NCBI RefSeq assembly: GCF_030013595.1
Contig: NZ_CP122769.1
Length of the DNA stretch: 64,000 bases
From: Escherichia coli
Lineage (GTDB): Bacteria; Pseudomonadota; Gammaproteobacteria; Enterobacterales; Enterobacteriaceae
Strand: one strand, 5' to 3'
Made by a program: the position numbers and the translations under genes. The number at the start of each line of letters is the position of its first letter. Within the stretch, counting starts at the first letter, position 1. Of the stretch, positions 2,956 through 25,553 are shown in pieces. The notes below the pieces were generated by a model. It was given only the letters and a program-made list of their open reading frames with translations. It was not told the origin of the DNA and made no database searches.

Positions 2956-2973
2956 TTAAATTATACCCATGTG

Positions 2974-3009
2974 GGGATCACACCCCATATGGGAGTGATC
3001 CCTTTTTTT
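2974..3009 (+). terminator. GC-rich hairpin plus T7 run (terminator-like)
   Basis: gggatcac ... gtgatccc inverted repeat followed by ttttttt. Confidence 0.55.
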
Positions 3010-3025
3010 ATTGAGAGAGGATCAC

Positions 3026-3961: not shown

Positions 3962-3974
3962 TTAAAATTATTTT

Positions 3975-4003
3975 CTCCCATAGGGATTTCTCCCTATGGG
4001 AGA
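3975..4003 (+). repeat. 13-bp-arm perfect inverted repeat (hairpin) between paralogues
   Basis: tctcccataggga-ttt-tccctatgggaga. Confidence 0.6.
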
Positions 4004-4029
4004 AATCCCTCTATTAAGAGGGTATTGAA

Positions 4030-4701
4030 ATGAATGCTATACAAAAGTTAGTTGAATCTATTCTTGTTAAAATGGGTTTTGTTGGCGCTGTAGTGGAAAA
4101 TATATATTTGGATTCAAAACCATTTCGGCATATTCGATTTGTGGCTGATATTCCAGTAATATCTTTTCTACCTCATTTGGTGAAATATCTTAAGGGTGCA
4201 GACCATCTTTACAGTGGTAACGATGATTTGCATCCTCTTTTCATTTATTTTTCCGAAGCGGCTACATTAAAAGCAGGTCCTGTAAATCTCGCGAACTTTC
4301 GTTTTGAAGTTTCTATAGCTTCAACTCATTTACGACTGGTCTCAGAGCAGCCTGATTTGCTTTTCAAAGGATTTAACCGGGATAATCTAGAATACGTTTA
4401 TTACCGCTCAGATTTGGCCTCTAGGGATCTTATACTAGGCCTTGTTGAACACGGTTCTCCTTTCATAAAACATCTACATGGACTTATACAAAAGCGAATT
4501 TTAAACGAGTTCTCTCTGATTTTTTCTGTTCTTGAAAAGATTTTAGAAAGCGCGAAGCCACAAATTCTTGCTTGCTTCCATAGTGTTGATTATGAAATGA
4601 ACGTAAAAATAATAGCCGAAGCTATACCTGAAACTGTATCTAATCAGATAGTCACATCTGATTATATAGTTAATGTTAGCGCCAATGATATAAGACTGTA
4701 A
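4030..4701 (+). CDS. hypothetical protein, paralogue family member 3; 3' end probably truncated by IS insertion
   Basis: N-terminus KLVESILVKMGF fits family; stop codon 4699-4701 abuts the IS21-family terminal inverted repeat. Confidence 0.5.
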   Translation: MNAIQKLVESILVKMGFVGAVVENIYLDSKPFRHIRFVADIPVISFLPHLVKYLKGADHLYSGNDDLHPLFIYFSEAATLKAGPVNLANFRFEVSIASTHLRLVSEQPDLLFKGFNRDNLEYVYYRSDLASRDLILGLVEHGSPFIKHLHGLIQKRILNEFSLIFSVLEKILESAKPQILACFHSVDYEMNVKIIAEAIPETVSNQIVTSDYIVNVSANDIRL

Positions 4702-4774
4702 TTCGCCATTTGGGTTGTCCGCTCCACCCAACATGTTGTTTCCTTGAGGTTCTCACACCAGAAAGGACATCGAC

Positions 4775-6744
<1,970 letters not shown>

Positions 6745-6775
6745 TCAAATAGCGGACATTAAAAATGGCGAAAAC

Positions 6776-7080
6776 CGGCCATAAATCTTGGCGTTGACAT
6801 TAATTCTATATCAGATGCGGACAAGTTTATAAATCATGTTCGTCGCTATTTAGCAGGCAGGGTAATGAAGAGGCGGATATACGCTGAATTAGATGTTTGT
6901 GAAGAAACATCAAGTATTTCACTAGTGAACTTAGGATGCTTTACGTCTCCTCTGCTCGTTACGGAATATCAAATGTTTAAGCCACACTCTTCAGGGTTAT
7001 ATCGAAAAGCTATAAACAACTCCTTAAAACAGTTCAAACCAGAAATGCATGTACCTTCTGAAGAACTCTTTTATAATTAA
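6776..7080 (+). pseudogene. possible 3' remnant of the IS-disrupted paralogue
   Basis: Frame is open from the IS right end (6776) through ORF 6865-7080; followed by the same type of hairpin as other family members. Confidence 0.3.
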
Positions 7081-10724: not shown

Positions 10725-11261
10725 ATGAGTACTCAAAAGCAACTTTCCAGAACAACCGGCACTGAACGTATGTTTAAGGAAGAGCTGGCGTTATCCTTAA
10801 TTTGTTGGGTTTTCACCAGTCCATTTACCAACTGGACCGATAAAGTCTTCAGTGGTATTGAAGTTCCGTCTGAAGGACCGTCAACATTACTGGGTGAGGC
10901 TGAAAAATTCTTTCGTTTTGTCGTTAATGAAGAAGGCTACGACGCAGGAAGGGCTGCTCTTGGTCTTGACCTATGTTGTTTTTCACTTCCGTCGTGTTTG
11001 TTCCCGGACGCTGCCCTGTCTGAGGAAGAGGTTATGAGTAAGTTAACCGGAGAAGTTATCCATGGGATTCTTCTTTCCTTACCTGAATTTATTGATATGC
11101 CAGAAGTGCTCGCTTACCAGGTCAGGGATGAAATTCTTGCTTTTAACACTCGCTGTGGAGACGGGATCTTTCATGGTTGGAACACGGCTTCAGAATTGTG
11201 GAAGTTTGAAATCTTTCCCCGCACCACCATCATGATGCAGCATACTTCGGCAATACATTAA
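10725..11261 (+). CDS. hypothetical protein
   Basis: 178-aa ORF. Confidence 0.45.
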   Translation: MSTQKQLSRTTGTERMFKEELALSLICWVFTSPFTNWTDKVFSGIEVPSEGPSTLLGEAEKFFRFVVNEEGYDAGRAALGLDLCCFSLPSCLFPDAALSEEEVMSKLTGEVIHGILLSLPEFIDMPEVLAYQVRDEILAFNTRCGDGIFHGWNTASELWKFEIFPRTTIMMQHTSAIH

Positions 11262-11277
11262 AATTAGGCGGGGCAGA

Positions 11278-11724
11278 ATGCATAAAAAACTTTTTCTTCT
11301 CGAATGGAAACCCTGTCAGAGCCGCGTATGGGCCGGTTGGATGGCCCTGTGGTTGACTATCAGTTTTCTGATGTTATCTGCCTTGCTTATGACAGATCAT
11401 CTCCTGAACAAAGTCATCCTGCCGCCAACATGGTTGTTGATCTGGTTTTCGCCAATGCTGGGGTTTTTGATAAAAGTTCGCGTCGTCGAAACTCAACATT
11501 TCCTGGAGCATGACCTCTGTGTTGCAGGTTTCTCTTTTTACCGCTGGAAGAGGTTAGTTTCTCCCGGGCTTTGGTCAGTTGACTGTATAAATGGTCGTTT
11601 TCGCCTCAATCGGATCACCCAGGTGGGTAAGACTATCCACTATCCATGGCGTCTCCATTATCATCCTTTGTTCATGAGCCCTATCGAACATAAATCGCAT
11701 GCTGTGAAAGCTGTTTCAAAATGA
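11278..11724 (+). CDS. hypothetical membrane protein
   Basis: Hydrophobic N-terminal half (WMALWLTISFLMLSALLM). Confidence 0.4.
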   Translation: MHKKLFLLEWKPCQSRVWAGWMALWLTISFLMLSALLMTDHLLNKVILPPTWLLIWFSPMLGFLIKVRVVETQHFLEHDLCVAGFSFYRWKRLVSPGLWSVDCINGRFRLNRITQVGKTIHYPWRLHYHPLFMSPIEHKSHAVKAVSK

Positions 11725-11796
11725 CTTCTTTAGAGGTTTACATGACATTTATGTTCTGCAAGGTCAGCCAGGGCAGCAAAATTGATTTGAAATAAC

Positions 11797-12777
11797 ATGA
11801 GCCTGGAGAAACGTATGAGTTATGACGATTTGCCCTATTTTCGTGACCAGATTCTGGAACGTATCGACTCGCTTAAGTGTTTTCTTTCGAACACCCCCCC
11901 GCTGATGGCAAACCTGATGACTGTCTCCACCGTATCTCGAACAGAAGAGCGACTGAAGCAGGTTAAACCCATCAGGGTTAGTGTTAAAGACGATGCTTCG
12001 GTTGAGGAAATTATTCAGGCACTTACTGACATCTGTGTGGATGACATAGAGTCATTAAGTCATGATTCCACCAAAGTGACCACTAAATACCCGGGTCTTA
12101 TCATTGTCCCAGAAAGAGCAGATCTTCTCGAAAGCTTGATCACATCTATAAATGAAGCAAAAAATGATTTTGCTGCGGCAATGAGGCGTATCGATAATAA
12201 AAAGAATGTCCGTTTTGATAAAGTGCACAAGAAGCTCCCGGGCCTTGTCGCTATGCACTCAACAAGAAATGTCCTTTTCATCAAGTCCCAGCTTAAAAAA
12301 GTTACTTTTTCATGGCGGCTAAACCGAAACCAGGAAGTTAAAACAGCAGAGCAACTTGTGAGTTTGTTGGAGCGCAGGAGAGCCTCAGAAGTAAAAAATG
12401 TAGCAACTACCAATTTGAATGTCGTGTCTAATATCGATAAGGCTTTACACCGTCTTGAATTTCACCCACTGAAGCAGGGCGAATCTTATCGCCTTTGTCG
12501 AACTAACTCTTTCCCTGTTCCGATTGCTCACATTTTTGCATTTAGGCCTGAAGGGCAGGAACGAAACGGGAATAAATATGCTGAGACTGATTATTCAGTA
12601 GTAAAAGCATCCTTGCCCATTTTCGCAGCAGGCAACATACCTCAATTAAAAACGCTCTCTGACTGGGCTCCTGAAAACAGCCAGGGCCCGTCCAACCAAC
12701 GGAAGCTGAGCCTGAAATATACAGAACTCGTGCCGGGGGCTGAGCTGGGCATTTTCATTGTCAGCCCCGAAAATTAA
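11797..12777 (+). CDS. Tus-like replication terminus-binding protein homologue
   Basis: Segment FDKVHKKLPGLVAMHSTRNVLFIK..FSWRLNRN recalls the E. coli Tus region [29 protein letters not shown] (from memory); similar length. Confidence 0.5.
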   Translation: MSLEKRMSYDDLPYFRDQILERIDSLKCFLSNTPPLMANLMTVSTVSRTEERLKQVKPIRVSVKDDASVEEIIQALTDICVDDIESLSHDSTKVTTKYPGLIIVPERADLLESLITSINEAKNDFAAAMRRIDNKKNVRFDKVHKKLPGLVAMHSTRNVLFIKSQLKKVTFSWRLNRNQEVKTAEQLVSLLERRRASEVKNVATTNLNVVSNIDKALHRLEFHPLKQGESYRLCRTNSFPVPIAHIFAFRPEGQERNGNKYAETDYSVVKASLPIFAAGNIPQLKTLSDWAPENSQGPSNQRKLSLKYTELVPGAELGIFIVSPEN

Positions 12778-12786
12778 GGAACAACA

Positions 12787-13692
12787 ATGCAATGGATTTC
12801 CACAGCCAGCCAGAAAATCGATGAGCGTCTCTATCGTGTCTGCGTCTGGGTAAAAAAATATCACGCTGATGCGATTAACCGCGTTGTGCTTACCGTTGAT
12901 CTAAGTAAAGCCCGACATGACCCTGACGAGGACCAGGTAAGAGCAGAGCTGCTGTGCGGCCATTATTTTTTGCTTCGTAAGGAAAACGCTTCGAACTCTG
13001 CGCCTGACGATCAAAAGTTTGCTTTCCTGCCTGACGGGCGCAATCTGTGTTGGCAGACCGCAACCCCGGTGCTTCAGCATCTCCTGCTCAATAAAAACGT
13101 TCCTGAGTCGCTGAGGTTGCTTACGGACTACATACATATGCGTCTGGCCAGGCTGACAATGGTACCAATGTCCGGAACCATCATGAACGAGGCTCTGCTG
13201 GACAGCATCAGCTGGGTTAAGGTGGATTTGACCTACTTCTGGCAGTATGAACAGCTCAGCTCTCATCTGGGACCCATCCAGATAACCCACAAGGCACTAG
13301 TACGCTTCGGGCATCTGGCAAAGAATGATGAAAACTCCAGTGCCATAAGAATCCTGCGTCAGCGTCTGTCTTCAGAATTCTTACAAGAATTTCAGATGGC
13401 TGAGGATGAGCTAAAGCGCAAACAGTCGTTGATGGGCACCATGGACGTGAAAATGCTGTTTCATGCTCATTACCCCAGCCAGAAGATGCTGGTGGCTCGA
13501 TATAAAAATGGTTGGGTAATGGTGGATTGTTTTCTGTTTCATCATACCAAACCTAAGAAAAAAGCAAAAAACAAAACTACTGTGGCTAAGCCTCAACTTA
13601 AAGAGACTAAAAGAGAAGGGAGTGAAAATGGAACTGGGCATTATGGTGTGCATCGTGTTGTTACTCTCCGTGGCGGCGGCGTGGATCAGTAA
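12787..13692 (+). CDS. hypothetical protein
   Basis: 301-aa ORF with Lys-rich C-terminus. Confidence 0.5.
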   Translation: MQWISTASQKIDERLYRVCVWVKKYHADAINRVVLTVDLSKARHDPDEDQVRAELLCGHYFLLRKENASNSAPDDQKFAFLPDGRNLCWQTATPVLQHLLLNKNVPESLRLLTDYIHMRLARLTMVPMSGTIMNEALLDSISWVKVDLTYFWQYEQLSSHLGPIQITHKALVRFGHLAKNDENSSAIRILRQRLSSEFLQEFQMAEDELKRKQSLMGTMDVKMLFHAHYPSQKMLVARYKNGWVMVDCFLFHHTKPKKKAKNKTTVAKPQLKETKREGSENGTGHYGVHRVVTLRGGGVDQ

Positions 13693-13972
13693 TAAGACAG
13701 TTGATTTGCTCGAAAGATTCTATTTCAAGCGTCCGCTGAGCATGGAGTACGCGGCATGGCTACGTGTAATGTGTGCAGGCTTGTTATTGGTTTTTATTCA
13801 GGTTGCTCCACAATTTACACTTCTGTATACCCTTAAACTTGTCACGCTTATTAATCTTGGAATCCAGACAATGAAATTAAATGGCGTGTACAAATATAAA
13901 AGAACGGGAATTTTGCCTCCGGGAGGGGCACTCTCTAATCTCACCAGACTTAACCCGTTCAAGAAAAAATAA
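13628..13972 (+). CDS. small hypothetical membrane protein
   Basis: Two hydrophobic helices (MVCIVLLLSVAAAWI, MCAGLLLVFIQ). Confidence 0.35.
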   Translation: MELGIMVCIVLLLSVAAAWISNKTVDLLERFYFKRPLSMEYAAWLRVMCAGLLLVFIQVAPQFTLLYTLKLVTLINLGIQTMKLNGVYKYKRTGILPPGGALSNLTRLNPFKKK

Positions 13973-13993
13973 AGTTATGCGCCCGTGAGGGCG

Positions 13994-15184
13994 CTATTCA
14001 TCAAAGGCATTTCGCATAAGCTTGATCATTGCTTTTTTACCAGCTTCAATATTACGAATGTAGCGCATAACCATTTCTTCATTCGACCAGTTCCCCATTT
14101 CCATAATCTGTGGTAGCGAGTAACCTTCAATATTTAGCTGTATCGCTCCGCCTACACGAACGCTGTGCCCTGTCCAGTAACGAGTTTTAGTCTCATTTGG
14201 ATAAAGCTCATTCCACATCTCTTTAAATGCTCGTAAAAGGGAATTTTTGCTGAGCATACCGGCATCGTCCACAGTGTCTTCTTCATCTTCATCTTCATCG
14301 TTCAGAAGACTTTGCTTAGCACGATAGGGTAGGTTATGCCTTTTAAGAAGTTCAGATAGCTCATTCCCCTTACTCCGAAGCTTCCAGCCGGGTGGCATAT
14401 AGCCTGTATCATGGAAATTTACGGCCTGGAAAAGGAATTCATCCGGATGACTGTGCTGATCCATTTTCACGAGGTTCATCAATCTCAAGAGGCAGTTAGT
14501 TAACTGACGTGTCAGCCGGTAGGTAAGAAGTGTACTAATGTTCGTTTTTGTACGGTATACCGTCAGGTTAAATTCACCGGTCATACTATCCAGAGACAGA
14601 TCTTTCAGACGTATACGTCGAATTTCGGATGAACGGAGCAGTGTTTCAAAGCCTGTCCAGATCAGGCACAGGTCACGAAGTTTACGAACTGAGTTTGTAG
14701 TACTGCGTAACTTTATCAGAGCCTTGAGATCGCCAATAAGAAAGGGAGTTGCCTGTTTAGTCGTCTTTCGCTTCCGGGCTTCCGATTGTTTTAAGGCTTC
14801 CAGCATGTACCATGCTTCAGACGTAATAATCCCGGGCAGGTTAAGCCCTTTTTTATGGATACTATTTAAGGCCTGAAGACAGCTGTTTATGCTGCTTCGT
14901 GACAATTTGCCTTCAAGATGCCCCATAAACGCAAGCAGAGCGTCCTCAGACACGGGGAGCGAACTTACTGGCCAGTCTGTATGCAACCGGGCATTCGCCA
15001 GATACCATTCGTTCCATACTCGTAGCCAGTGCAGATAGGTTTTAGCAGTGTTGTATCTCAGATGGGAAAAGTAACGGATCAAGCGTGAAAGCTGTTTATC
15101 ATGGTTGCCGAACGTTTCCAGCTGCTGATGCAATTCGCTTTCCGAAAACTGTCTGATCACTGATTGATTCTTCATCCTGCTCAC
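13994..15184 (-). CDS. tyrosine site-specific recombinase (phage integrase family)
   Basis: C-terminal catalytic region GHSVRVGGA..LPQIMEMGNWSNEEMVMRYIRN (R..H..R..Y signature). Confidence 0.75.
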   Translation of the reverse strand: MSRMKNQSVIRQFSESELHQQLETFGNHDKQLSRLIRYFSHLRYNTAKTYLHWLRVWNEWYLANARLHTDWPVSSLPVSEDALLAFMGHLEGKLSRSSINSCLQALNSIHKKGLNLPGIITSEAWYMLEALKQSEARKRKTTKQATPFLIGDLKALIKLRSTTNSVRKLRDLCLIWTGFETLLRSSEIRRIRLKDLSLDSMTGEFNLTVYRTKTNISTLLTYRLTRQLTNCLLRLMNLVKMDQHSHPDEFLFQAVNFHDTGYMPPGWKLRSKGNELSELLKRHNLPYRAKQSLLNDEDEDEEDTVDDAGMLSKNSLLRAFKEMWNELYPNETKTRYWTGHSVRVGGAIQLNIEGYSLPQIMEMGNWSNEEMVMRYIRNIEAGKKAMIKLMRNAFDE

Positions 15185-15345
15185 CGGGATACACTGGTTT
15201 TAATTACAGGTCATTTTAGCACTCATGTACCTGGTTATGAACAGGGTGGAAACAACGAAAAAGGTTGTGAAATCGTTAGGCTTAAGTGAAAAATGATATT
15301 AAGATTATCCTTGGCCAGTTGAGGCCTGTCTAAAGAAGGTTGATT

Positions 15346-15558
15346 ATGTCTGACACAAAGCAGTCTTATTTAATGAAATTCCGTAAGTGTAGTTCGTTCG
15401 AAACGCTCGAAAAAGTATTTGAAAGGTTATGTGAAAAAAACTCGGGTGTCGCCTCTCTTGAAATTTCTGGTGCTTATGATCATCGTAAAGCCGAACTGAC
15501 AATGAAAAAGTTATATGACAAAGTTCCTGCGAGTGTGTGGACCTTTGTTCGCGAGTAA
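15346..15558 (+). CDS. hha: Hha/YmoA-family expression modulator
   Basis: YLMKFRKCSSFETLEKVFE ... DHRKAELTMKKLYDKVPASVW closely matches Hha (..LRRC..ETLERV.. ADHRLAELTMNKLYDKIP..VW). Confidence 0.85.
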   Translation: MSDTKQSYLMKFRKCSSFETLEKVFERLCEKNSGVASLEISGAYDHRKAELTMKKLYDKVPASVWTFVRE

Positions 15559-15888
15559 TTATTAATATTGGCACAACAAAAAGACTGTGCCTGGATTTGA
15601 AAATAGTTTATGCCCCTTTCGGGGCTAAAGGCATTGTAATAGCCTGTCTTTTAAAGTTGTTTATTAAGTTCGGAGAAAAACTTTAATCATAAGCCAAGCC
15701 CACTGCTAAATACATCCGATATTCTCCTTCATTTTATTAGAAGTGATAAAAGTTACTTTACCTAAACTTCTCTCTCAATATTTGTAAGGCTCTCATTTGA
15801 TTTTTGTCAAACATTAATCTGGAAGACGGAAAAATCATTTCTTTTAATACGTTTTACAGAAATCCTCCTCCGTTATTTCGGATATAGT

Positions 15889-17001
15889 TTGAATCATTAT
15901 CAAAAACGGGGTGCAGCCATGCGTAAGAGTTATACATTTGGTATTCCATTTGGACTCCAGCGTGAATCAGGACTCTTTTTAGATATTACAGAGGTCAGCC
16001 GGGGTATTGACTGTAACTGCATCTGCCCCGCTTGCAAAACTGATCTGTTAGCAAAGCAGGGGGAGGTCAAGCTTTGGCATTTCTCACACAGTACAGCTGT
16101 AGCCGGTGACTGTGATGGTCTGATGGAAGCCATCCGGGGAAAGATTATTGAAGTCATCAACGAGCACCAGGTTCTTGGTTTCCCAAATCTTCTCGCTGGC
16201 GACGATGGTGGGCCGGTTTCACTGAATGAGGTTAGTGGAAGCGGCAGTATGTTCGGAGGCACAGCTGATCTGTTCGTAAAGGTTAATGATTTATGTGTGG
16301 CCGTCTTTCTGGACAGGGATCGCAGCATTTCAGAGAAGTTAACCTTTGACCATCTTCATCCTTCCGAAAGAGTTGCCGCATTGCGTATCGATCTTCCTGA
16401 TATTGAATATGAAATCAGTCAGGTGCAGCTCGGGCGACGTAAAACAACATACAGTGAGTGCATTGAAAGCCTGATCATTGATGAGACCAGTTCCCGGGAA
16501 TGGCTATATCATCCATTAATGCATGAACTTGAATCTGAACCTCTTCAGGAGTATCGGGGACGGGAGCCTTCAGAGGAAGGGCCTCTTCTTCAGCGCCTTG
16601 CTGACTGTAAGATGAAATTGCCTGATATCCTTCCGGGCAGTCATAACGCGCTAGTCAGGTTACAGCAGGATACGATTGTATGTCTGTGTCGGTTAACGGT
16701 TCGGGCTTATGACATCGCTCAGACCGATGAATTTCCTTTGTTCCTTCGCTATTTCAGGTTGCACTGCCTGGAAAACAGCGAACATGTCAGTTACGAAAGA
16801 CTGATCTGCTGGCAGGAAATGATTTCAAAAACCCAGGAAGGCCAGTCCTTGACACAAAACGAACTTGAATATCTTCATGAGATTGTCCGCATCGCCTTTT
16901 ACAATCACCGGCTTAACAATGTCAGTATTTCAGATGTTAAAAACCATGACACTGGAAAGAAGAGCGGCAGGGTAGAGTCACAAAACTATTCACTTTTATA
17001 A
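15889..17001 (+). CDS. hypothetical protein with CoiA-like N-terminal zinc-finger/nuclease-type motif
   Basis: CNCICPACKTDLLAKQGEVKLWHFSH resembles the CoiA-family C-P-x-C ... HFxH motif. Confidence 0.4.
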   Translation: MNHYQKRGAAMRKSYTFGIPFGLQRESGLFLDITEVSRGIDCNCICPACKTDLLAKQGEVKLWHFSHSTAVAGDCDGLMEAIRGKIIEVINEHQVLGFPNLLAGDDGGPVSLNEVSGSGSMFGGTADLFVKVNDLCVAVFLDRDRSISEKLTFDHLHPSERVAALRIDLPDIEYEISQVQLGRRKTTYSECIESLIIDETSSREWLYHPLMHELESEPLQEYRGREPSEEGPLLQRLADCKMKLPDILPGSHNALVRLQQDTIVCLCRLTVRAYDIAQTDEFPLFLRYFRLHCLENSEHVSYERLICWQEMISKTQEGQSLTQNELEYLHEIVRIAFYNHRLNNVSISDVKNHDTGKKSGRVESQNYSLL

Positions 17002-17167
17002 ATAACTTGGGCTTTGCGCATTAAACCCTTGCCGCAGGCGGTGTACCGCATATCCGGCACAGACAGTCAGTTTTTTCTGGCAGCTTAAATTTGACACTGC
17101 TTAATATAGTGATTCATTAAACAGGTTCAGTATGCTGCCAGAACGTTTTAGTCGTAATGGGCGTCCG

Positions 17168-18721
17168 TTAGTTTTCAACTAACTGAACGACGACCAGCCT
17201 GCCGCCTTCCTCCTTTGACAGAACAAACTGAGCGTTATTCGTCAGTTCAATTTTTTCCCCAATGGCAATCTGTCGTTTATCCGGTAATGACATAAGCCCA
17301 TTTATGCCTTCATTTACTAACCACCACTGATCGTTATGGAAAACAAAATACCCAACTCGTTTCCTTTGTGCATCGGTTGTGCGCTCATTTGGCGCAATGA
17401 GGCGATTCACATGCCACGCATAGATTGACTGCCCGCTCCACACCATCAACCGGTGGTCGTCAGGACGATAACTGCCTTCCTTTCGGGATGAATATAAATT
17501 TAGAACCGGTAATTTACCCTTGTATGGCGTACCGCAGTAGGGACAAACCGGCTTTGTCTTACCTGAGAAAACGTACCATTTCTGTTCACACGCCTTGTTC
17601 TGGCAGGGCTGTATCAGATCGACTGTTTTAACCAGGGCACTTTCCCACTCATCGGCGGTCGGGCGTTTATTGGCATCGTGTAAGCCATCAATAAAGGCGC
17701 GTTCAAACAAAGGCGTCAAATAAGGGCCCATGATGGTGTAAGGAATTTTCTCCGGGTCAGCCCAGGGCAGTGAAAAGGAGGATATCTGACTGACTTTGAC
17801 TGCATTGCTTTTGTCTGTCGGATGTTCAATGAAGAGTGCCTTCTCACCCATAGATAAGGTCTCATCACGTACTTCATCCGACATGTCATGTATTTTTCCG
17901 CCACGTAGCGGATGACGGAAGAACAGATACATGTAGATAAGCACCGACAGCGCATGACGGTCAGTAGAAATGCTTGGCAATACGCGGTTCGGATCCTCTT
18001 TGGAAAGATGGCTGGTTTTCACCACTTCCGGAGCGATAAAATCCGGGGTGCCCACGACGTCGGGAGGATACTTTCCAGGGACAACCAGGCCGTCTACGTC
18101 AATGATGCAGGCATGTCCCATTTCTGGATCGATAAGCACGTTTTTATAGCTTAGATCGCTGTGACAGAGACCTGCCGCATGCATCCTTCTGACGGCTCTT
18201 GTTAGCAGCAGACAGACCTTGAGATAGGTAAGCGTATTGCCTCGTTCACGTGGGTCGAGAAATTTATTCTGGTTGCTGGCGCTGGCAAACCATTTGCCTT
18301 CCTTTTCACGGCCTTTTATGCCAAGAAAATCATCGTTTTTAGAGCCGTATTTAAAGAAAAAGTAGCTTTTGTAGGTTGGAACCACGATGCCGATTTTATC
18401 CCCATGCTCAACAACGTGGGTCGGCCAGCAAAACAGGTCCTTCCAGTATTCACCTCCGGACTGGCCAAAAATGTTTTGCCTGTAGCGTCCGGTGATCATA
18501 TCAATCCGATCCCGGGCCTGCTCGTTCTGCGGTTTATGATAAAAAGCGACGACGTATGATTTATCAGGCGAGAAGTAAACATCCTTCATCGAGCCCGAAC
18601 CAATTACCTCGTCAACATACTGGACTGTTTCGCCGTCCTTTGTTTTGCACGTAACAATATTTGCCATATTGATCACCGAAGAAGCGTATCCCTTACCACA
18701 ACACCGCAATAGTGCGGTCAT
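17168..18721 (-). CDS. Ser/Thr protein kinase with C-terminal zinc ribbon and FHA-like domain (ter-linked)
   Basis: Catalytic loop HSDLSYKNVLI, DVDG (DFG-like), GTPDFIAPE; CQNKACEQ..CPYCG zinc ribbon; WWLVNEGINGL FHA-like; alternative start at 18667 (MANIVT) avoids overlap with phosphatase gene. Confidence 0.8.
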   Translation of the reverse strand: MTALLRCCGKGYASSVINMANIVTCKTKDGETVQYVDEVIGSGSMKDVYFSPDKSYVVAFYHKPQNEQARDRIDMITGRYRQNIFGQSGGEYWKDLFCWPTHVVEHGDKIGIVVPTYKSYFFFKYGSKNDDFLGIKGREKEGKWFASASNQNKFLDPRERGNTLTYLKVCLLLTRAVRRMHAAGLCHSDLSYKNVLIDPEMGHACIIDVDGLVVPGKYPPDVVGTPDFIAPEVVKTSHLSKEDPNRVLPSISTDRHALSVLIYMYLFFRHPLRGGKIHDMSDEVRDETLSMGEKALFIEHPTDKSNAVKVSQISSFSLPWADPEKIPYTIMGPYLTPLFERAFIDGLHDANKRPTADEWESALVKTVDLIQPCQNKACEQKWYVFSGKTKPVCPYCGTPYKGKLPVLNLYSSRKEGSYRPDDHRLMVWSGQSIYAWHVNRLIAPNERTTDAQRKRVGYFVFHNDQWWLVNEGINGLMSLPDKRQIAIGEKIELTNNAQFVLSKEEGGRLVVVQLVEN

Positions 18722-20333
18722 CGTGGTTCCCTGTGGAGAAAAAGTTAAGCCAGTCGCCTAACCTCTCAGGCGCAATACTGGCGTCTGTAAGGACAGGGAT
18801 GAGCTCATCAAGGAGACGGGTCCATTTTTCGTCACTGCGAAGCCCGTTATCTGTCTCAAACAGAGGGTCTGATACGCCATCTGTCATGAGGATCAAGTGA
18901 GATACATCATTCCATTTACCCACGCTGATGCGGCCGCTAAACGAGGGGTCTGCGATAATGCTCTGGTCAAGAAAGCGGGTTTGTCCTGCGTATTCTCCGC
19001 TATCGGGATTTCCCAGTATCCTGACTTTACCGGAAGGGCTGTATGCACCTATCGCACCATCACCAAGCCAGAATGCAGCCGCAAACAGCTCGTTATCAGT
19101 TCGTAGCGCTACAGTTGCCAGTAGGGTTGTTGAATAGGATTTCACAGGTTGTTCTGCACAAATGGCTTCGTTCTGGATACTGTTGACCGCGAGCGTAGCT
19201 GCCTGTTTAAAATGATGAAGCATGGCGTTTATGGTTGCCTGCTGATCGCTCCCTTCCCACGCCGTGATGTGCTGCTTTAGATGGACGCCTTTCAAACCAC
19301 TGAGCTGATTGAAAAGGTAATCGCCAGCCGTTTGGACTGCAATCCGGGAGCCTTCCCGGGAATTTACCGCACTACCGGCCCCGTCTGCGACCAGCATGAC
19401 AGACCATCCTGTTTCCTGGCAGTGGTTGATATAGAAGTCGTCATCTCTGAAGCTCCCGGCATGCTCATGAGATCGTCCCCGGCGACTGGCGGCAGCAATA
19501 CGTATGTCACCCCTGACCAGGCCAGCAGCGTCCAGATGGGACTTAGGGTAGGAAGCGTCTGCTGGTGGCTCTACCACCTTCCACAGGCTTCTCGGATCGG
19601 GATTGACTATAAAAAGCTGTTTTGTTTCGCATTCGTCGTGCGAAGCGCATGACCAGAGTACTGAAAGCTCTATATCGCCGCTTTCGGTGGGTGTACCTGT
19701 CAGCAACTTATGCTCTTTGTCAAAGGTCAGGCCAATGTTCCTGGGAAAGACAACGTCCCTGACAGTAGCCTGCTGGCCCTCATCCAGAACTATAGCAACC
19801 GGCGAAGAGAAACGTTCGCCTGCGCGGGCGTTGGGAATAACTATTTTAGCTCTCGGGGGAACGGCAGGTGGCACAGCTAATCCGGCCCGCTGCTGGCCTG
19901 TCGGTATCTGCCCGGGTTTTAATACCAGGGAAGACAGGTTTTCGTCTTCCCTCTGTGCTGGTTTATCAAATTCGTAATAAGGCATCAGCTTCCAGAACGG
20001 AGGATGAGGTTCATTTTCTGGCAGGGGTTGCAGTAATGGTGTATCGGTAGCGTCAATGCCCGGGTTATCAGCATCACTTACGACCGTTTGTTGCTGATCG
20101 GAAAGGCTGGATGCTGACGAGGGGGCGATCTCTGCGTCGTTATAACCTTCGCTAACCCGCGCAGATAAACCCTGTGCAAGGCTCTCAATCCGCTCTTTAA
20201 GCCGCATAATCTCTTCAGTAAGGGAAGGGTCGTGCGATAGAAGAAAAAGCCGCTCACCTTCTACAGGGTGGCCCAGCTCAGACAGCACTAAGCGGATAAT
20301 CTTCTCTTCAAGTAAAACATTTTGCGACATCAA
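18693..20333 (-). CDS. PP2C-family Ser/Thr protein phosphatase (ter-linked)
   Basis: PP2C motifs RRGRSHEHAGSFRDDDF, VADGAGSA, LILMTDGVSD. Confidence 0.8.
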   Translation of the reverse strand: MMSQNVLLEEKIIRLVLSELGHPVEGERLFLLSHDPSLTEEIMRLKERIESLAQGLSARVSEGYNDAEIAPSSASSLSDQQQTVVSDADNPGIDATDTPLLQPLPENEPHPPFWKLMPYYEFDKPAQREDENLSSLVLKPGQIPTGQQRAGLAVPPAVPPRAKIVIPNARAGERFSSPVAIVLDEGQQATVRDVVFPRNIGLTFDKEHKLLTGTPTESGDIELSVLWSCASHDECETKQLFIVNPDPRSLWKVVEPPADASYPKSHLDAAGLVRGDIRIAAASRRGRSHEHAGSFRDDDFYINHCQETGWSVMLVADGAGSAVNSREGSRIAVQTAGDYLFNQLSGLKGVHLKQHITAWEGSDQQATINAMLHHFKQAATLAVNSIQNEAICAEQPVKSYSTTLLATVALRTDNELFAAAFWLGDGAIGAYSPSGKVRILGNPDSGEYAGQTRFLDQSIIADPSFSGRISVGKWNDVSHLILMTDGVSDPLFETDNGLRSDEKWTRLLDELIPVLTDASIAPERLGDWLNFFSTGNHDDRTIAVLW

Positions 20334-21370
20334 CCTCTCCCTCTGTTTACGTCGAAGTTAGTGTTTCCGCCATCATTGCTGAATGACAGACCTGTTTCAC
20401 ACCACGGGCAGATCACGTCATCCGGGCCGTCAATGCACAGCAATTTTCCGCATGAGCACAGGGCAAACGCACTGGCATTACCGCAGTGAGGGCAACCCGG
20501 TACGCCATGCAGTTCGCTGGTGTTTACCTGCAAACCGGTAGCGGTGGCATCTGACCATGCAAAATAGTCCTCATCGATGGGATAGCATCCGGCAATATTA
20601 AAGCTGTTCAGGTTCAGGCTGAAATCGAGCCCGGAAATCCTTGCTGGTGGCCGTTCATACTTCATCAGATACGGACGACGGGTCTTGCTGCAACGGCCGG
20701 TAAGCGTAACGCAGTTTTCGTCGTACGCTTTTACTGGCTCGTCCTTGGCCAGCCGGACTATGTATTCAGTCTGGCTGAGCTCAGGTTGTTTGTCGTCTCC
20801 GACGCTGCGGCTGTGCGCCGTAACCGAGGCTGTGATCCATTTGATGAAGCGGGTAAAGTCCCCTTCCTGAGACTCGGTGAACAGCATGACATTCTCTGTC
20901 AGTTGCCGCAGGGTATTCAGGTCCGCTGACGGCCCCAGGCCAACGGCAATGAGATTCACTTTACTCGCGTAGTGATCCTTCCAGCGCTTCACTTCTGCGG
21001 TTGTGTCGTCAGTCGGACGTCCGTCGGTAAGGAGATACACGACGGGTTTCCAGTCGCCTTTAGCCTCATGAGTGGTTTTTCTGACCTGGGTATCAATTTG
21101 TACGGTCAGCTCACGCAATGCGGCCCCAAGGCTCGTACCGCCGCCAACGGGAAGGCGGGGAGGGTAGAACGAGGCAATTTCGTGAAGAGGTACAATCGTA
21201 CGGGCTACACCGGCAAATGCGATTACCGAAACCCAGGCTGTTTCAAGTGCGTGTGGATCCTTTCTTAAATCTCCGATGATCATTTGCAGACCATCAGTCA
21301 TTTTTTTCAGGTTTTCACCAATCATGGACTCTGAACAGTCCAGGACAAAAAACACGGGAAGGCGTCTCAT
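20330..21370 (-). CDS. TerY-like vWA domain protein with C-terminal zinc ribbon
   Basis: MRRLPVFFVLDCSESM (vWA MIDAS motif) ... CPHCGNASAFALCSCGKLLC..CPWC; start assigned to internal ATG (21370) by analogy with the other TerY paralogues. Confidence 0.75.
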   Translation of the reverse strand: MRRLPVFFVLDCSESMIGENLKKMTDGLQMIIGDLRKDPHALETAWVSVIAFAGVARTIVPLHEIASFYPPRLPVGGGTSLGAALRELTVQIDTQVRKTTHEAKGDWKPVVYLLTDGRPTDDTTAEVKRWKDHYASKVNLIAVGLGPSADLNTLRQLTENVMLFTESQEGDFTRFIKWITASVTAHSRSVGDDKQPELSQTEYIVRLAKDEPVKAYDENCVTLTGRCSKTRRPYLMKYERPPARISGLDFSLNLNSFNIAGCYPIDEDYFAWSDATATGLQVNTSELHGVPGCPHCGNASAFALCSCGKLLCIDGPDDVICPWCETGLSFSNDGGNTNFDVNRGRG

Positions 21371-21455
21371 AATTTTCCTCGTACGGCTGGTACGGCCAGC
21401 AGAAAACGTTGCTGTACAGAAAGGTGCTGCCCGGAAAGCAGCACCTTTCTGTCTG

Positions 21456-22097
21456 TCAGAGCACCAGCTGGATTTCTGGTGGAGGAGGGGGAAGGGTATC
21501 AGTTCCGTTATTGATCCCCGCGCTTGTGCTGCCGGAAGACACGCTGGCCGATACCCATTTAAAGAAACCTGCAAACGCGGTTGAATCTAGCGTCTCCAGA
21601 GACACAACCTTATCGGTGAGCTGTTTTAAGTGCTCATGGCCTGCTTTAGGACCAACGGCGCAGGCAATGATGGATCCGAATCCCCGGCCGCGAATCGCTT
21701 TTACCGCTTCACCGTACGCCAGGGCATCAGAAGGGGTTCCATCAGTCATCAGGAATACCAGAGGACGCCAGTCTCCTTTTGTATCACCATCTGAGCGACG
21801 TACATCCCGTTCAACACACTGCATCAGACATTCAAGGGCAGCACCGGTGAACGTCCCGCCTGCGCTTGGCACAACGATGTCAGAAAACTGGAAGTCTTCC
21901 AGCGGCGTGAGAGGAATGAACTCACGCGCCTCATTGTCATAGGTGATAATGGAGATATGAACGCTTTCGAGGGCGTAGGGATCCTGGCGAAGAGCGCTAA
22001 GCATCGCCTGAATTCCAACGTTAACGGAATGGATGGACTCACCGCGCATCGAGCCGGATGTGTCGATAACAAGGTAAACAGGCAGGCGGCGCATCAC
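21456..22097 (-). CDS. terY: TerY (vWA domain) tellurite-resistance-associated protein
   Basis: MRRLPVYLVIDTSGSM MIDAS motif; 213 aa. Confidence 0.85.
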   Translation of the reverse strand: MMRRLPVYLVIDTSGSMRGESIHSVNVGIQAMLSALRQDPYALESVHISIITYDNEAREFIPLTPLEDFQFSDIVVPSAGGTFTGAALECLMQCVERDVRRSDGDTKGDWRPLVFLMTDGTPSDALAYGEAVKAIRGRGFGSIIACAVGPKAGHEHLKQLTDKVVSLETLDSTAFAGFFKWVSASVSSGSTSAGINNGTDTLPPPPPEIQLVL

Positions 22098-22735
22098 ATG
22101 TAATTCCTCAGGTGCGAGACAAACGAATCTGATTCTGAAGGCTCACCAATTGCCCTGAGTTTCCAGCCTGTAGCCTCGCGTATCAGCTCGGCAAAAACCA
22201 TGGAGCGCTGGCTGGCGAAGGCGGGTCCGCCAGAAAGATCGAATCGTGCCATTTCAATATTACGGGCATCTACTGCCCGGATGAAGGCATTCTGAACTTT
22301 ACCAAAGTGCTGCTGGAGCTTTTCACCATTGTAGATCTGAACGATGAACACAATTTTCTCGTACTGAGCGTCAAGGGAATTCAGGCGCACAATAATTTGC
22401 TCATCGTCACCATCACCGGCTCCGGTTCGGTTATCGCCCGTCAGCCAGATATTTCCTGACTTATGGCGAAGGCTGTTGAAAAAGATGATATCGCCATTCA
22501 CAAGCGTTGGTTTACCATTTTCCACATTGCCGAGATCGGTCACCTTTCCGGCTGAATTACACAGGAAAGCGATCACATCAAGGTCGTATTCTTCTTCTTT
22601 TTTACCAAAGATCCCGCCGAGGAAACCTTTCTTTTCCTCATTAATATCCCAACCCAGGCCGATAGTAACGGACGAGAGATCGTATTCATTTTTTTTCAGG
22701 CTTACGCCCTGGCCTTTGCTCAGACTGACAGACAT
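22094..22735 (-). CDS. terX: TerX (TerD-family) protein
   Basis: TerD-domain signature GDNRTGAGDGDDEQI; 213 aa. Confidence 0.85.
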   Translation of the reverse strand: MSVSLSKGQGVSLKKNEYDLSSVTIGLGWDINEEKKGFLGGIFGKKEEEYDLDVIAFLCNSAGKVTDLGNVENGKPTLVNGDIIFFNSLRHKSGNIWLTGDNRTGAGDGDDEQIIVRLNSLDAQYEKIVFIVQIYNGEKLQQHFGKVQNAFIRAVDARNIEMARFDLSGGPAFASQRSMVFAELIREATGWKLRAIGEPSESDSFVSHLRNYM

Positions 22736-22757
22736 GACATCCCCTTAATTAATAAAA

Positions 22758-23396
22758 TTATAAGACCACGTTTACTTCTGGCGGCGGCGGTGGCAGGTCT
22801 TCAAGACCGATCACTTCTTTTTTGCTGGACTCCACTTTCTGACTGCCTACCGAAATGCTCGCACTGACCCATTTAAAGAAAGCTTTAATCGTCGAACTGT
22901 CAGCTGTATCGAGCTGAACCACGATTTCAGTGATTTCTTTGAGGACGCTGGTATCGGCATCATGCCCGGCTGCACATGCCACAACAACGCCGGTTCTGGC
23001 CGCTTTAAAGTCATTCAGGCCTTTACGCCAGTCATCATTCGGACTTCCATCCGTCATCAGGAATACAAGGGGACGCCAGTCACCTTTAGTGTCAGCCGTC
23101 GTTTTCTGTACTTCTTTGGCAATGGAGCTGGCCGTCAGGGTAAGCGCTGCGCCAAGAGAGGTGGTGCCGCTGGCTGTTAGTGCTGGCATCTGGAAACTCA
23201 GGAGGTCTGTCAGGGGGACTGCCTGTCGGGCTGAAGAATCAAAGGTGATCACTGACACGTAAGCCGTTTCGAGTGCATACGGATCCTGTTTCAGCGTGGT
23301 AAGCAGCGTCTGAACGCCATTCTTAACCGCTTCGATAGGCTCTCCGTGCATAGAGCCGGACGTGTCGAGTAGCAGATATACGGGTAAGCGTCTCAA
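22758..23396 (-). CDS. terY: TerY (vWA domain) protein; probable TTG start
   Basis: LRRLPVYLLLDTSGSM; TTG at 23396 preceded by aaggaa RBS gives an N-terminus like the paralogues (the ATG-based ORF extends to 23477). Confidence 0.75.
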   Translation of the reverse strand: MRRLPVYLLLDTSGSMHGEPIEAVKNGVQTLLTTLKQDPYALETAYVSVITFDSSARQAVPLTDLLSFQMPALTASGTTSLGAALTLTASSIAKEVQKTTADTKGDWRPLVFLMTDGSPNDDWRKGLNDFKAARTGVVVACAAGHDADTSVLKEITEIVVQLDTADSSTIKAFFKWVSASISVGSQKVESSKKEVIGLEDLPPPPPEVNVVL

Positions 23397-23859
23397 ATGT
23401 AATTCCTTCTTAAGAGATCGGAAGAGGAGAGTAGTTTCAGGAAGAGGCCAGAGTTTGTAGATTTGATAAAACGGCACGACATCTGTCGGGTGGAGATTAA
23501 ATACTCAGAAGCGGCATTAAAGAAATAAGTTAACCACCATTGAATTACCGACATGTGAATGGCCTCTTATCAGAGAAAAAAATTCAGACCGTACTGGAAT
23601 ATAAAATTTCTGAAAAAAACTCCGGCAAAAATAAACTTTCTTATGTATGAAAATCATCATACATCACAGATCTGCATGAATGGAGTGTAAATCGCCCAAA
23701 GATTGATGTGTAGCACAAGAGGATGTCAAGACACCAGGTTTTGTAGGCAGAAAGGCGCTGCTGACATTGCGGGAGGAGAATAGATCAAAACTCCGTCACG
23801 CAGATACAGAGGTGAAATATGACAAAACCGGGGTTTTCACCCCGGTCTGAGATTTAGCG

Positions 23860-24327
23860 TCAGGACTTTTTAGCGCTGTATTCTTTTATCAGTTCATCAA
23901 CGGAGTGCAGAGCCAGCTTCTCTACCGCTTCACTTCGGGTCGAGCCACTCAGCGCAGCCAGACGGTCAATTTTTCTTAAAATCCGCATGCGTAGCGATAA
24001 TGACACGGCTGTTTTTTTATCCTTATCGAGTACGACCTTCCCTGTGGACTCACCGGTTTTCAGTTCAGCATTCTGTGCGAGCGCTTCATTCATCCGGCGA
24101 AGGGTCTTTTTATCCAGCTGGCCCGGATTAACGAGATGGTAGGAATGACCTGCCTTGCTGTATTTGATCTCCGCAGAATATGACTCGCGTAGCTCTTTGA
24201 GTGCCCGGGTTAATGTCGGCTCTGAGCATTCCAGACTGGTTATAATGTCGGCAGCGGAAACGGGCTTGCCGGTGCCCAGTAAGTTGGCAAGCTTAAAAAT
24301 CCGGGCCTGTCTGGTATTTAATTGCAT
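23860..24327 (-). CDS. terW: TerW-like DNA-binding protein
   Basis: 155 aa, position downstream of terY-terX-terY matches terW; predicted wHTH N-terminus. Confidence 0.65.
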   Translation of the reverse strand: MQLNTRQARIFKLANLLGTGKPVSAADIITSLECSEPTLTRALKELRESYSAEIKYSKAGHSYHLVNPGQLDKKTLRRMNEALAQNAELKTGESTGKVVLDKDKKTAVSLSLRMRILRKIDRLAALSGSTRSEAVEKLALHSVDELIKEYSAKKS

Positions 24328-24344
24328 CGTAAGATTTAGCCTGC

Positions 24345-25553
24345 TTAAAGGGTTAGTGGTTCAATAGGCTGAAAAATGAAGGTACTGCTCATCTTTCGAA
24401 TAACCGGGTGATCGCCTAACGCTTCAACCGGATCAATGTGTTCTAAGCCTGCAAAATTTACTGACGACATCTGGCTGCGACTGCATTTGCAGGACAGGAT
24501 ATACTCATCCTCCAGATAGCCGGTCCGCTTACTGACCCGTTGCGTAAAGCCTGACACAATCACGTTGTCGAACGGTAGCGTATGTAAAACGATACCGACC
24601 AGGCGGAACAAGCAGCCATGGACGTGGCGGGCATAGTTTTCGCGTACGGCTTTTTGCGTCATGGCTTTTTCCGTCAGCTCCGTGCCCCGGGCATTAACGC
24701 CGTAAATCTTATCAGGGAAATCTTCAATCTCAGCTAAATCAACATCCAGCAGGACTGCTGATAGCTCCGGCTTTACTTCAAATGCAACAAGCGTTTCACG
24801 CGGCCATTCAGTTTCTGCCAGCACACCCGCCAGGTATGATTCGAAAAACGCGGCGTCTGTCCGGAACTGCTGCCGGGCATCTGCCTGAGCCGTGGCGAGC
24901 CGTTTTTCATGTTCTTCAGCCTCAAACTTCCAGTTTGCATACTGTTCGGCCCAGGCCGTCCGTTGTTGCTGGTACCGGTGCTGTCGAAGGGTATTCTCAC
25001 GCTCCACATCAATCAGCTCCTGCTGCCACCGGCGAAGATTTTCGGCGTGGCGCTCAGCTTTAGCTGATTCCGATTCAAACCATTTACCCAGAAAACTAAT
25101 GCCTTCGCTCTCGGCAGGCTTTTCCGGCAATGCAAGATAGTCTGGCTTTTCTGGACGCACCGGTGCCGGAACCTGAAAAGGCGACGTTCTGTTATGCAGG
25201 TATACTGCTTCCAGCTCTGCCCAGCTGATGCCTGTTTTAGGATCCGGCGTCAGCTCGTGAATATTACGGATTGCGGTCACCGCTGACATGAGATCAGCGG
25301 CTTCCTCCTCAAGCGCCTGTCTGAGCCCCGGGTCGGTAGCCGTCCGGTTCCCACCTCCGGAACGCGCGGCCCGATCAAGCCGGGTACGGTAACTCAGCCC
25401 GGTACCGGGCAAGCCCAGATTGGCATAGGTCCCCCGGCTTCCAAAAGAAACGGAAGCACCTCTCGGCCCGACACTCAGGCTCGGTGCACCGTTACTCAGG
25501 TTGAGGCGAACACCAGGAATAATGTTGATCGACTTTCTGAATCTGAACCCCAT
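24345..25553 (-). CDS. ter-linked hypothetical protein with DUF4236-like N-terminus
   Basis: N-terminus MGFRFRKSINIIPGVRLNLSNGAPSLSVGPRG characteristic Gly/Ser-rich beta-rich start; acidic/coiled C-terminal half. Confidence 0.5.
   Translation of the reverse strand: MGFRFRKSINIIPGVRLNLSNGAPSLSVGPRGASVSFGSRGTYANLGLPGTGLSYRTRLDRAARSGGGNRTATDPGLRQALEEEAADLMSAVTAIRNIHELTPDPKTGISWAELEAVYLHNRTSPFQVPAPVRPEKPDYLALPEKPAESEGISFLGKWFESESAKAERHAENLRRWQQELIDVERENTLRQHRYQQQRTAWAEQYANWKFEAEEHEKRLATAQADARQQFRTDAAFFESYLAGVLAETEWPRETLVAFEVKPELSAVLLDVDLAEIEDFPDKIYGVNARGTELTEKAMTQKAVRENYARHVHGCLFRLVGIVLHTLPFDNVIVSGFTQRVSKRTGYLEDEYILSCKCSRSQMSSVNFAGLEHIDPVEALGDHPVIRKMSSTFIFQPIEPLTL

Follow-up and report, generated by a model that had tools for sequence, protein, structure and literature searches.

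A Cre-type tyrosine recombinase paired with hha on the IncHI2 plasmid backbone, with a conserved predicted LexA box on its promoter and no lox-type site found beside the gene

The 64,000-nucleotide stretch of Escherichia coli DNA analysed here (contig NZ_CP122769.1; called the window below) is IncHI2 plasmid backbone. It is collinear over its whole length with bases 48055–112055 of the IncHI2 plasmid NZ_CP117034, which has an IncHI2A replicon and a MOBH relaxase, and window positions 11000–19000 are 100% identical to that plasmid. At 13994–15558 the window encodes a Cre-type tyrosine recombinase that is divergent from a gene of the Hha/YmoA family. A LexA (SOS) box, conserved in most of the lineages in which the locus occurs, lies on the predicted promoter of the recombinase gene, and the gene has no lox-type site close to it. 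From the position and conservation of the box, we consider it likely that the recombinase gene is repressed by LexA and induced in the SOS response. As to the main role of the enzyme, we tentatively propose the damage-triggered resolution of plasmid multimers or cointegrates. Taken as one statement, SOS control combined with a resolution role is given a rough probability of 0.55. The features on which this reading is built are the following.

13994..15175, minus strand: Cre-type tyrosine recombinase gene, 393 aa, an annotated coding sequence in an identical plasmid (PGAP); orthologue of R27 R0183
15192..15211, minus strand: LexA (SOS) box ACCTGTAATTAAAACCAGTG, which starts 2 nt past the -10 hexamer and ends 16 nt before the ATG
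15213..15241, minus strand: predicted sigma-70 promoter of the recombinase, from a consensus scan; -35 TTCATA at 15241–15236, 17-nt spacer, TG-extended -10 TAAAAT at 15218–15213
15346..15558, plus strand: hha, Hha/YmoA-family gene, 70 aa (the mechanical open reading frame runs from TTG 15340); orthologue of R27 R0182

The earlier note on this DNA had described a phage-integrase-family recombinase with R-H-R-Y motifs, and this description is borne out. The open reading frame is present, its product matches Pfam Phage_integrase PF00589 (E 2e-13, 50.9 bits with a cut-off of 27.1), and R181, H337, R340 and Y372 are all found; an upstream in-frame GTG at 15184 gives a longer mechanical reading frame, 13994–15184(-), of 396 aa. 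That note did not recognise the enzyme as Cre-type in particular, nor the conserved LexA box in its promoter. In a family alignment that includes Cre, R181/E184/K210/H337/R340/W363/Y372 align with Cre R173/E176/K201/H289/R292/W315/Y324, and all seven Cre active-site residues are invariant among 10 family members. A tryptophan at the position of Cre W315 is a hallmark of Cre-type enzymes, where it replaces the second histidine of most tyrosine recombinases. A phmmer search against the PDB gave Cre as the best match (E ~2e-23), and returned only Cre and engineered variants of it. For an AlphaFold2 (AF2) model of the recombinase, with a mean pLDDT (predicted local distance difference test) of 71.8, the top 33 Foldseek matches are all Cre chains (E 4e-17), with ~370 alignment columns and template-modelling (TM) scores of 0.72–0.75 by Cre length, and the two-domain, C-shaped clamp fold of Cre is matched. 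Integron integrase and XerH rank far below Cre in the same search. As judged by active-site residues and predicted fold, the protein is thus a catalytically intact Cre-type tyrosine recombinase.

With Cre of phage P1, the recombinase shares 25.5% identity over 330 aligned residues, the active-site residues including the tryptophan, and the two-domain fold. It differs from Cre by an insertion of ~45 residues (264–306) that is largely acidic, predicted to be disordered, and common to the family. An exhaustive profile search retrieved a small full-length family, followed by a sharp drop to Cre-type proteins of ~340 aa that do not have the insertion. Among 50,697 phage records, the recombinase matches only P1-type Cre (~25% identity) and the C-terminus of Dre, and a search for relatives in viral contigs gave none. 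Like the present gene, Cre/loxP of P1 and Dre/rox of D6 are both located on low-copy extrachromosomal replicons of enterobacteria. The genetic company is different, since P1 cre is found with P1 immunity genes, whereas the IncHI2 gene is paired with hha and with a gene for a Tus-like protein.

The core of the E. coli-type LexA operator is CTGT-N8-ACAG. The gene order tus-like gene, two to four small open reading frames, recombinase (convergent with these) and hha (divergent from the recombinase) recurs in 14 lineages, with recombinase identity down to 30%. When IncHI2 is compared with IncHI1 and IncHI1B-type plasmids, the sole non-coding DNA of this module that is conserved is a segment of ~80 bp upstream of the recombinase (15185–15263). 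The more distant intergenic regions are unalignable except for the -10 hexamer, which is followed at once by CTGT-N8-ACAG or CTG-N10-CAG. Matches were scored with a LexA weight matrix made from 20 classical LexA operators of E. coli, whose own scores range from 12.2 to 22.2 bits. Two controls, the umuD operator (26.2 bits) and the annotated LexA site of the P1 lox-cre region (18.0 bits), were both retrieved as top matches. The site at 15192–15211 is the top match in the window, with 15.0 bits compared with 9.6 for the second, and is also the only match there to CTGT-W8-MCAG. On the 232-kb IncHI2 plasmid it is third in rank, after a site 20 bp upstream of umuD (26.2 bits) and a site within the coding sequence of a tra gene. 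Simulation puts the frequency of sites with 15 bits or more at ~3e-6 per position, or ~5e-4 per 170-bp intergenic region.

In 12 of the 14 lineages, a LexA box is the best match of the entire locus (13.7–23.4 bits) and is located right behind the extended -10 element. The distance to the called start codon is 26–44 nt in 10 of these 12, the window included; in the lineage L017 the box is found ~34 nt before an internal methionine that is probably the true start, and in the Klebsiella locus L005 it is upstream of an inserted intron. Heterology indices across the lineages range from 2.6 to 10.2, with 0.4–9.2 in the training set. Where other DNA separates the recombinase from hha, as in Rahnella and in MGH83, into which an integrative and conjugative element (ICE) has entered, the box is found on the recombinase side. 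Synonymous sites are saturated between IncHI2 and IncHI1 (pS 0.74), and survival of the box therefore reflects selection and not recent common ancestry.

A dyad at this position might also belong to the recombinase itself, as an autoregulatory operator or as the core of a crossover site, and not to LexA. The dyad is the only conserved non-coding element near the recombinase, its AT-rich centre of 8 bp has the length of the loxP spacer, and in the relative L010 tandem copies make a 13-6-13 repeat. Its symmetry ends at the 4–5 bp of the LexA core, CTGT/ACAG, whereas the arms of Cre-type sites are 13 bp long. The core is also identical although the recombinases share only 35–42% identity, whereas the characterised targets of Cre-type enzymes (loxP, rox and vox) differ from each other (PMC10250229, PMC3553980). 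Furthermore, the bases that flank the core follow LexA preferences, and a matrix trained only on E. coli operators ranks the dyad first. Because the symmetry is confined to the LexA core, and this is the same in lineages with recombinases that are only 35% identical, host LexA explains the box better than a site of the enzyme's own, which we regard as improbable. In L010, whose recombinase is a 47%-identity relative, the two tandem LexA-like boxes TACTGTAATAAATTACAGG and TGTAATAAATTACAGGG are found at 175–210, upstream of the recombinase; this contig also carries phage lysis genes, and has a stretch of 1.9 kb without a called gene downstream of the recombinase.

The regulatory region of P1 lox-cre offers the closest comparison. 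The annotated LexA site of P1 (L020 46–65) is 45 bp from the loxP centre, between the lox and cre promoters, and is assigned to the divergent P2coi promoter. The two systems are alike in that each has a LexA site in this region, but the IncHI2 box is on the recombinase's own predicted promoter, whereas the P1 site is on the divergent promoter. The association of LexA boxes with Cre-type genes may be older than either system alone suggests.

In characterised Cre-type systems, a site of two inverted 13-bp arms with an 8-bp spacer is found no more than ~1 kb from the gene, and a pipeline for mining such enzymes depends on this arrangement (PMC10250229). In this respect the IncHI2 enzyme departs from Cre/loxP. 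An inverted-repeat tool and our own scans, at several stringencies, returned no lox-type (13-8-13) palindrome within ±1 kb of the recombinase. In the hha–recombinase intergenic region of 11 lineages, the best lox-type dyad was no better than those in shuffled sequence, and a cross-locus comparison gave no candidate lox arms common to several loci. Downstream of the recombinase only unrelated, ordinary terminator hairpins are present, and no lox-type site. On the plasmid as a whole, the strong dyads are RepHI2 iterons, an oriT-like array next to mobI, Tn7-like ends and hairpins, and the short repeats are the known partition-region repeat array and copies of insertion sequences (IS). The search of the flanks for recombinase target repeats that the earlier note had advised thus gave none near the gene, and its suggestion of a shufflon enzyme is unsupported, as repeated or inverted recombination sites were detected neither near the gene nor elsewhere on the plasmid. 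In a P1-like control (L023), the same scan finds the loxP-like site ATAACTTTATATA-actgccat-TATATAAAGTTAC, and the negative search is therefore meaningful. The target of the recombinase may be asymmetric, within a coding region, or distant from the gene.

Three leads to a site were rejected. The dyad at 1245–1278 is part of a 16-16-16 hairpin, and its sequence is not conserved in IncHI1. The dyad at 3972–4005 belongs to a row of intergenic hairpins that interleave. In MGH83, the point 85 bp upstream of the recombinase at which homology breaks off is the end of a 42-kb ICE that has its own integrase. As for the control site, it is located at 2180–2213 in L023, a P1-like phage contig that encodes a 346-aa Cre homologue, ~1.8 kb upstream of the gene, and looks like an undescribed natural lox variant.

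A constitutive system for resolving plasmid multimers, of the Cre/loxP kind and with a LexA-like dyad that is merely incidental, deserves consideration, since Cre, the nearest of the characterised relatives, is known from textbooks to resolve dimers of the P1 plasmid, and since the gene is located on large low-copy plasmids beside other maintenance genes. Against this stands the outcome of the target search, in which no lineage has a lox-type site within ±4 kb of the gene and the dyads of the plasmid are all assigned to other elements, although a P1-like control yields its site by the same scan. A box at a fixed promoter position in 12 of the 14 lineages is also unexplained by chance. Genetic evidence is available for the R27 orthologue: R27 Del183, and combinations in which R0183 is deleted together with other genes, were stable in E. 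coli MG1655 without stress, and the instability of a larger R27 deletion was mapped to incC of the FIA-like replicon (PMC4853401). The stability of the R0183 deletion argues against a constitutive and essential role in multimer resolution. We conclude that such a system is unlikely, and that the recombinase does not belong to the standard multimer-resolution enzymes of known site, an identification that the earlier note had named as refuting it; the resolvase alternative in that note may still hold. Because a gene repressed by LexA would be silent in unstressed cells, no stability phenotype is expected for it there, and the R0183 result agrees with this.

The deletion result also raises the possibility that the recombinase is a relic, kept by linkage and without function today. 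The absence of a phenotype in R27 and of a recognisable target would both be in line with this. Every catalytic residue is kept in all lineages, however, and where synonymous sites are unsaturated the ratio of non-synonymous to synonymous substitution rates (dN/dS) is 0.14–0.16, as expected for purifying selection. The promoter and operator are conserved against a background of saturated neutral divergence, and the full-length gene is present in ~2750 plasmid records. A relic is for these reasons highly improbable.

In the reading that we favour, SOS control with a resolution role, a LexA operator that covers the predicted transcription start would keep the recombinase repressed in undamaged cells, and cleavage of LexA in the SOS response would turn it on. 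Conjugative entry of single-stranded plasmid DNA would probably also lead to transient derepression. The enzyme would then perform conservative site-specific recombination at a site other than a loxP-type palindrome beside its gene, and would resolve the plasmid multimers or cointegrates that are made by RecA-dependent recombination during damage repair. Hha would serve as the plasmid's H-NS co-silencer, linked to the recombinase throughout the history of the family. XerCD/cer, and ResD/rfsF of F, resemble the proposed system in role and in being located on a large low-copy plasmid. Both act at a defined cis site and show a stability phenotype, whereas no site was found for the IncH recombinase and the R27 deletion is stable.

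Several points weigh against this reading. The LexA matrix rests on operators taken as textbook knowledge, though it was validated on two controls. The window box is at the weak end, with 15 bits and a heterology index of 9.1, compared with 0.4–9.2 in the training set. In Photorhabdus the box is degenerate (CTAT, 11.5 bits), and in L022, the most divergent member with 30% identity, a LexA box was sought and none was found. Since the P1 LexA site is assigned to a divergent promoter, proximity of a LexA box to a Cre-type gene does not prove that it controls the gene. The R27 deletion result fits equally well with no role in stability whatever. Finally, we infer LexA binding, SOS induction and the biological role from sequence, and any statement on the outcome of the recombination reaction is inference as well.

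The main competitor to multimer or cointegrate resolution is programmed rearrangement, i.e., inversion, deletion, fusion, or integration into another replicon, with SOS control serving to diversify or mobilise DNA under stress. A LexA-controlled tyrosine recombinase is the integron paradigm, where LexA control of the integrase ties recombination both to the SOS response and to conjugation (PMC3108266). R27 shows no stability phenotype, and the failure to find a simple palindromic site suggests that the substrate may be unconventional. On the other hand, except for the known arrays and IS copies, no paired short repeats, inverted or direct, were found on the plasmid that could bound an invertible or excisable segment, and the 8-kb region (11000–19000), of which at least 80% is covered by 1071 PLSDB records, is collinear in these records. 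Rearrangement as the main function is thus considered unlikely. The similarity to the integron integrases (IntI) consists of a tyrosine recombinase promoter overlapped by a LexA box that is conserved in many lineages. IntI belongs to another clade (Foldseek E 3e-8 compared with 4e-17 for Cre) and acts on attI and folded attC sites adjoining its gene, whereas the IncHI2 locus has no cassette array and no attC-like structures.

A further, similarly unlikely, possibility is a damage-triggered recombination system of new design on IncH plasmids and on the large IncFIB/IncHI1B plasmids of Klebsiella, in which a Cre-type enzyme with an extra acidic segment would act on a non-palindromic or otherwise unconventional target, with Hha (together with H-NS) or the Tus-like protein as a possible architectural or directional partner. 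If this were true, antibiotics that induce the SOS response, such as quinolones, would directly provoke fusion, resolution or rearrangement of plasmids.

The gene pair, and the likeness of the recombinase to Cre, are already on record in the annotation of R27. Neither the conserved, predicted SOS control nor the lack of a lox-type site seems to have been reported before; in the literature searched, which included LexA together with IncHI, neither LexA control nor a target site is described for R27 R0183. Plasmids of the IncHI2 and IncHI1 types are important vehicles of mcr-1, of extended-spectrum beta-lactamase (ESBL) genes and of multidrug resistance in typhoid. A backbone recombinase induced by damage would couple antibiotic stress and conjugative entry to plasmid recombination, much as the SOS-controlled integron integrases do. 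The enzyme is also a natural Cre-type recombinase that departs from the palindrome-beside-gene rule by which recombinases for genome engineering are mined, and discovery of its site would widen that rule.

The earlier note was also right to place an Hha/YmoA homologue next to the recombinase. The two genes diverge from start codons that are 170 bp apart. The hha product is 50% identical to E. coli Hha, and matches Pfam HHA PF05321 with E 9e-19 and 67.9 bits (cut-off 25) over profile positions 1–56 of 57. With 75.6 bits for the NCBIfam Hha subfamily it falls below the 90-bit cut-off for chromosomal Hha, and it is below the YdgT cut-off too; it is therefore a plasmid paralogue. R27-type IncHI1 plasmids encode the H-NS paralogue Sfh (PMC7074111), and in R27 Hha and H-NS jointly repress conjugation at 37 °C (Forns 2005, as cited in PMC7074111). 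The earlier note had suggested looking for an H-NS paralogue on the replicon; with E. coli H-NS and StpA as queries, tblastn detected none, either in the window or on the whole IncHI2 plasmid of 232 kb, which encodes a single Hha. The IncHI2 Hha must therefore depend on chromosomal H-NS. As in R27, with its Hha and H-NS/Sfh, an Hha-family protein is present on an IncH plasmid, but the IncHI2 plasmid carries only the Hha half of the pair. P1 Cra (73 aa, encoded upstream of cre) was considered as a relative of Hha and rejected, as there is no similarity.

The remainder of the module, and the gene on the far side of hha, are as follows.

11797..12777, plus strand: Tus-like (replication terminus-binding) gene, PF05472 E 5e-19; orthologue of R27 R0186
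12787..13972, plus strand: two conserved open reading frames (301 aa; ~114 aa, a predicted membrane protein); counterparts of R27 R0185 and R0184
13979..13994, no strand assigned: GC-rich hairpin GCGCCC-GTGA-GGGCGC between the convergent recombinase and small open reading frame, overlapping the recombinase stop codon by 1 base
15889..17001, plus strand: gene for a CoiA_N-domain protein, PF25164 E 6e-8, on the far side of hha

In R27, R0182 is annotated as Hha, R0183 as similar to P1 Cre and R0186 as Tus-like, with R0184 and R0185 in between (PMC4853401, Supplementary Table S2). R0182 and R0183 are the IncHI1 orthologues of the present pair, with 62% recombinase identity, the same divergent layout and the same neighbours on the tus side, and nothing in R27 is different in kind. 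The recombinase and hha pair is annotated in more than 1000 plasmid records. Recombinase identity to the window is 62% in IncHI1 pHCM1, 66% in an IncHI1B-type Klebsiella plasmid, 75% in Photorhabdus, 69, 60, 53 and 42% in metagenomic contigs, and 36% in Rahnella, and there are two further deep lineages. The module is also present in the group of large Klebsiella IncFIB/IncHI1B plasmids, with 35–37% recombinase identity and more than 1300 PLSDB records. By gene content and order, the locus belongs to the core of IncH-type plasmid backbones, as a module equivalent to R27 R0182–R0186.

A Tus-like gene is located downstream of the recombinase in every lineage with sufficient flanking DNA, and a search for the Ter-core motif GTTGTAAC near tus gave matches at chance level only. 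The two open reading frames at 12787–13972, between tus and the recombinase and convergent with the latter, keep their positions in other lineages; Pfam, NCBIfam and PHROG searches returned no match for either. The hairpin at 13979–13994, which from its sequence and position is probably a terminator, is kept in IncHI1 and IncHI1B-type plasmids, and unrelated hairpins are found at this place in other lineages. On the other side of the locus, the CoiA_N-domain gene also follows hha in L009, L011, L017 and the IncHI1B-type plasmid, and is part of the ancestral neighbourhood. An Rfam scan around the locus gave no match, and a tRNA scan of the window was empty. Since conserved IncH backbone is present on both sides of the recombinase, in IncHI1, IncHI2 and IncHI1B-type plasmids and in more distant lineages, and the window has no tRNA, the idea that the recombinase marks an island boundary is unsupported.

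The hha gene is divergently upstream of the recombinase in 13 of the 14 lineages, and the contig of the fourteenth is too short to judge. Judged by this distribution, the pairing of hha with the recombinase is as old as the recombinase family. Foreign DNA is present between the two genes in three lineages, namely MGH83, the Klebsiella locus L005, and Rahnella, where it is a YeeR-like gene. Because the pair tolerates large insertions, tight coupling of the two genes in cis is unlikely. In MGH83 (NZ_CP073055, L006 700–42620), the insertion is an ICE of ~42 kb with trb genes, a relaxase, replication and partition genes and its own integrase, placed at a T-rich sequence ~85 bp upstream of the recombinase start, with promoter and LexA box intact. 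In the Klebsiella locus L005 (NZ_CP147751), a group II intron at 3961–5916, with ltrA at 4344–5831, has its GTGCG start immediately after the LexA box. This intron is in the 5' untranslated region of the recombinase and on the same strand, and would be transcribed from the LexA-controlled promoter; the relative L019 has no intron and is uninterrupted.

Other repeat structures were noted on the plasmid. At 1209–1290, after a toprim-domain gene, a GC-rich terminator hairpin directly precedes an AT-rich inverted repeat (GGTTATCTTATCAATA...TATTGATAAGATAACC), whose 16-nt arms pair perfectly across a spacer of 16 nt. At the matching place IncHI1 also has an inverted repeat, but with another arm sequence, which looks like compensatory change. 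The spacers between tandem paralogous genes of ~300 aa each contain two interleaved, mutually exclusive hairpins, the second with a T-run (window 2955–3026 and 3962–4029; L007 36905–36990, 37910–38000 and 38910–38995). Each spacer has its own sequence, and IncHI1 also differs from IncHI2, but the architecture is kept, and the hairpins may represent a terminator/antiterminator arrangement. Outside the window, at L013 45012–45091 (NZ_CP117034 158012–158091), four alternating copies of the 15-mer AAGTGACCCTATGT, with 7-bp spacers, are found ~330 bp upstream of mobI, and these copies probably belong to oriT or to an array for relaxosome binding.

In the window, an IS21-family element (istA, istB) at ~4700–6900 splits an array of paralogous genes; its GC content is 0.50–0.55, compared with ~0.40 in the surroundings, and a second copy is present elsewhere on the plasmid. 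At 17168–24400, a Ser/Thr kinase-like gene and genes for a PP2C phosphatase, a TerY-C protein and VWA/TerD proteins adjoin the ter operon for tellurite resistance, and are annotated backbone or accessory content.

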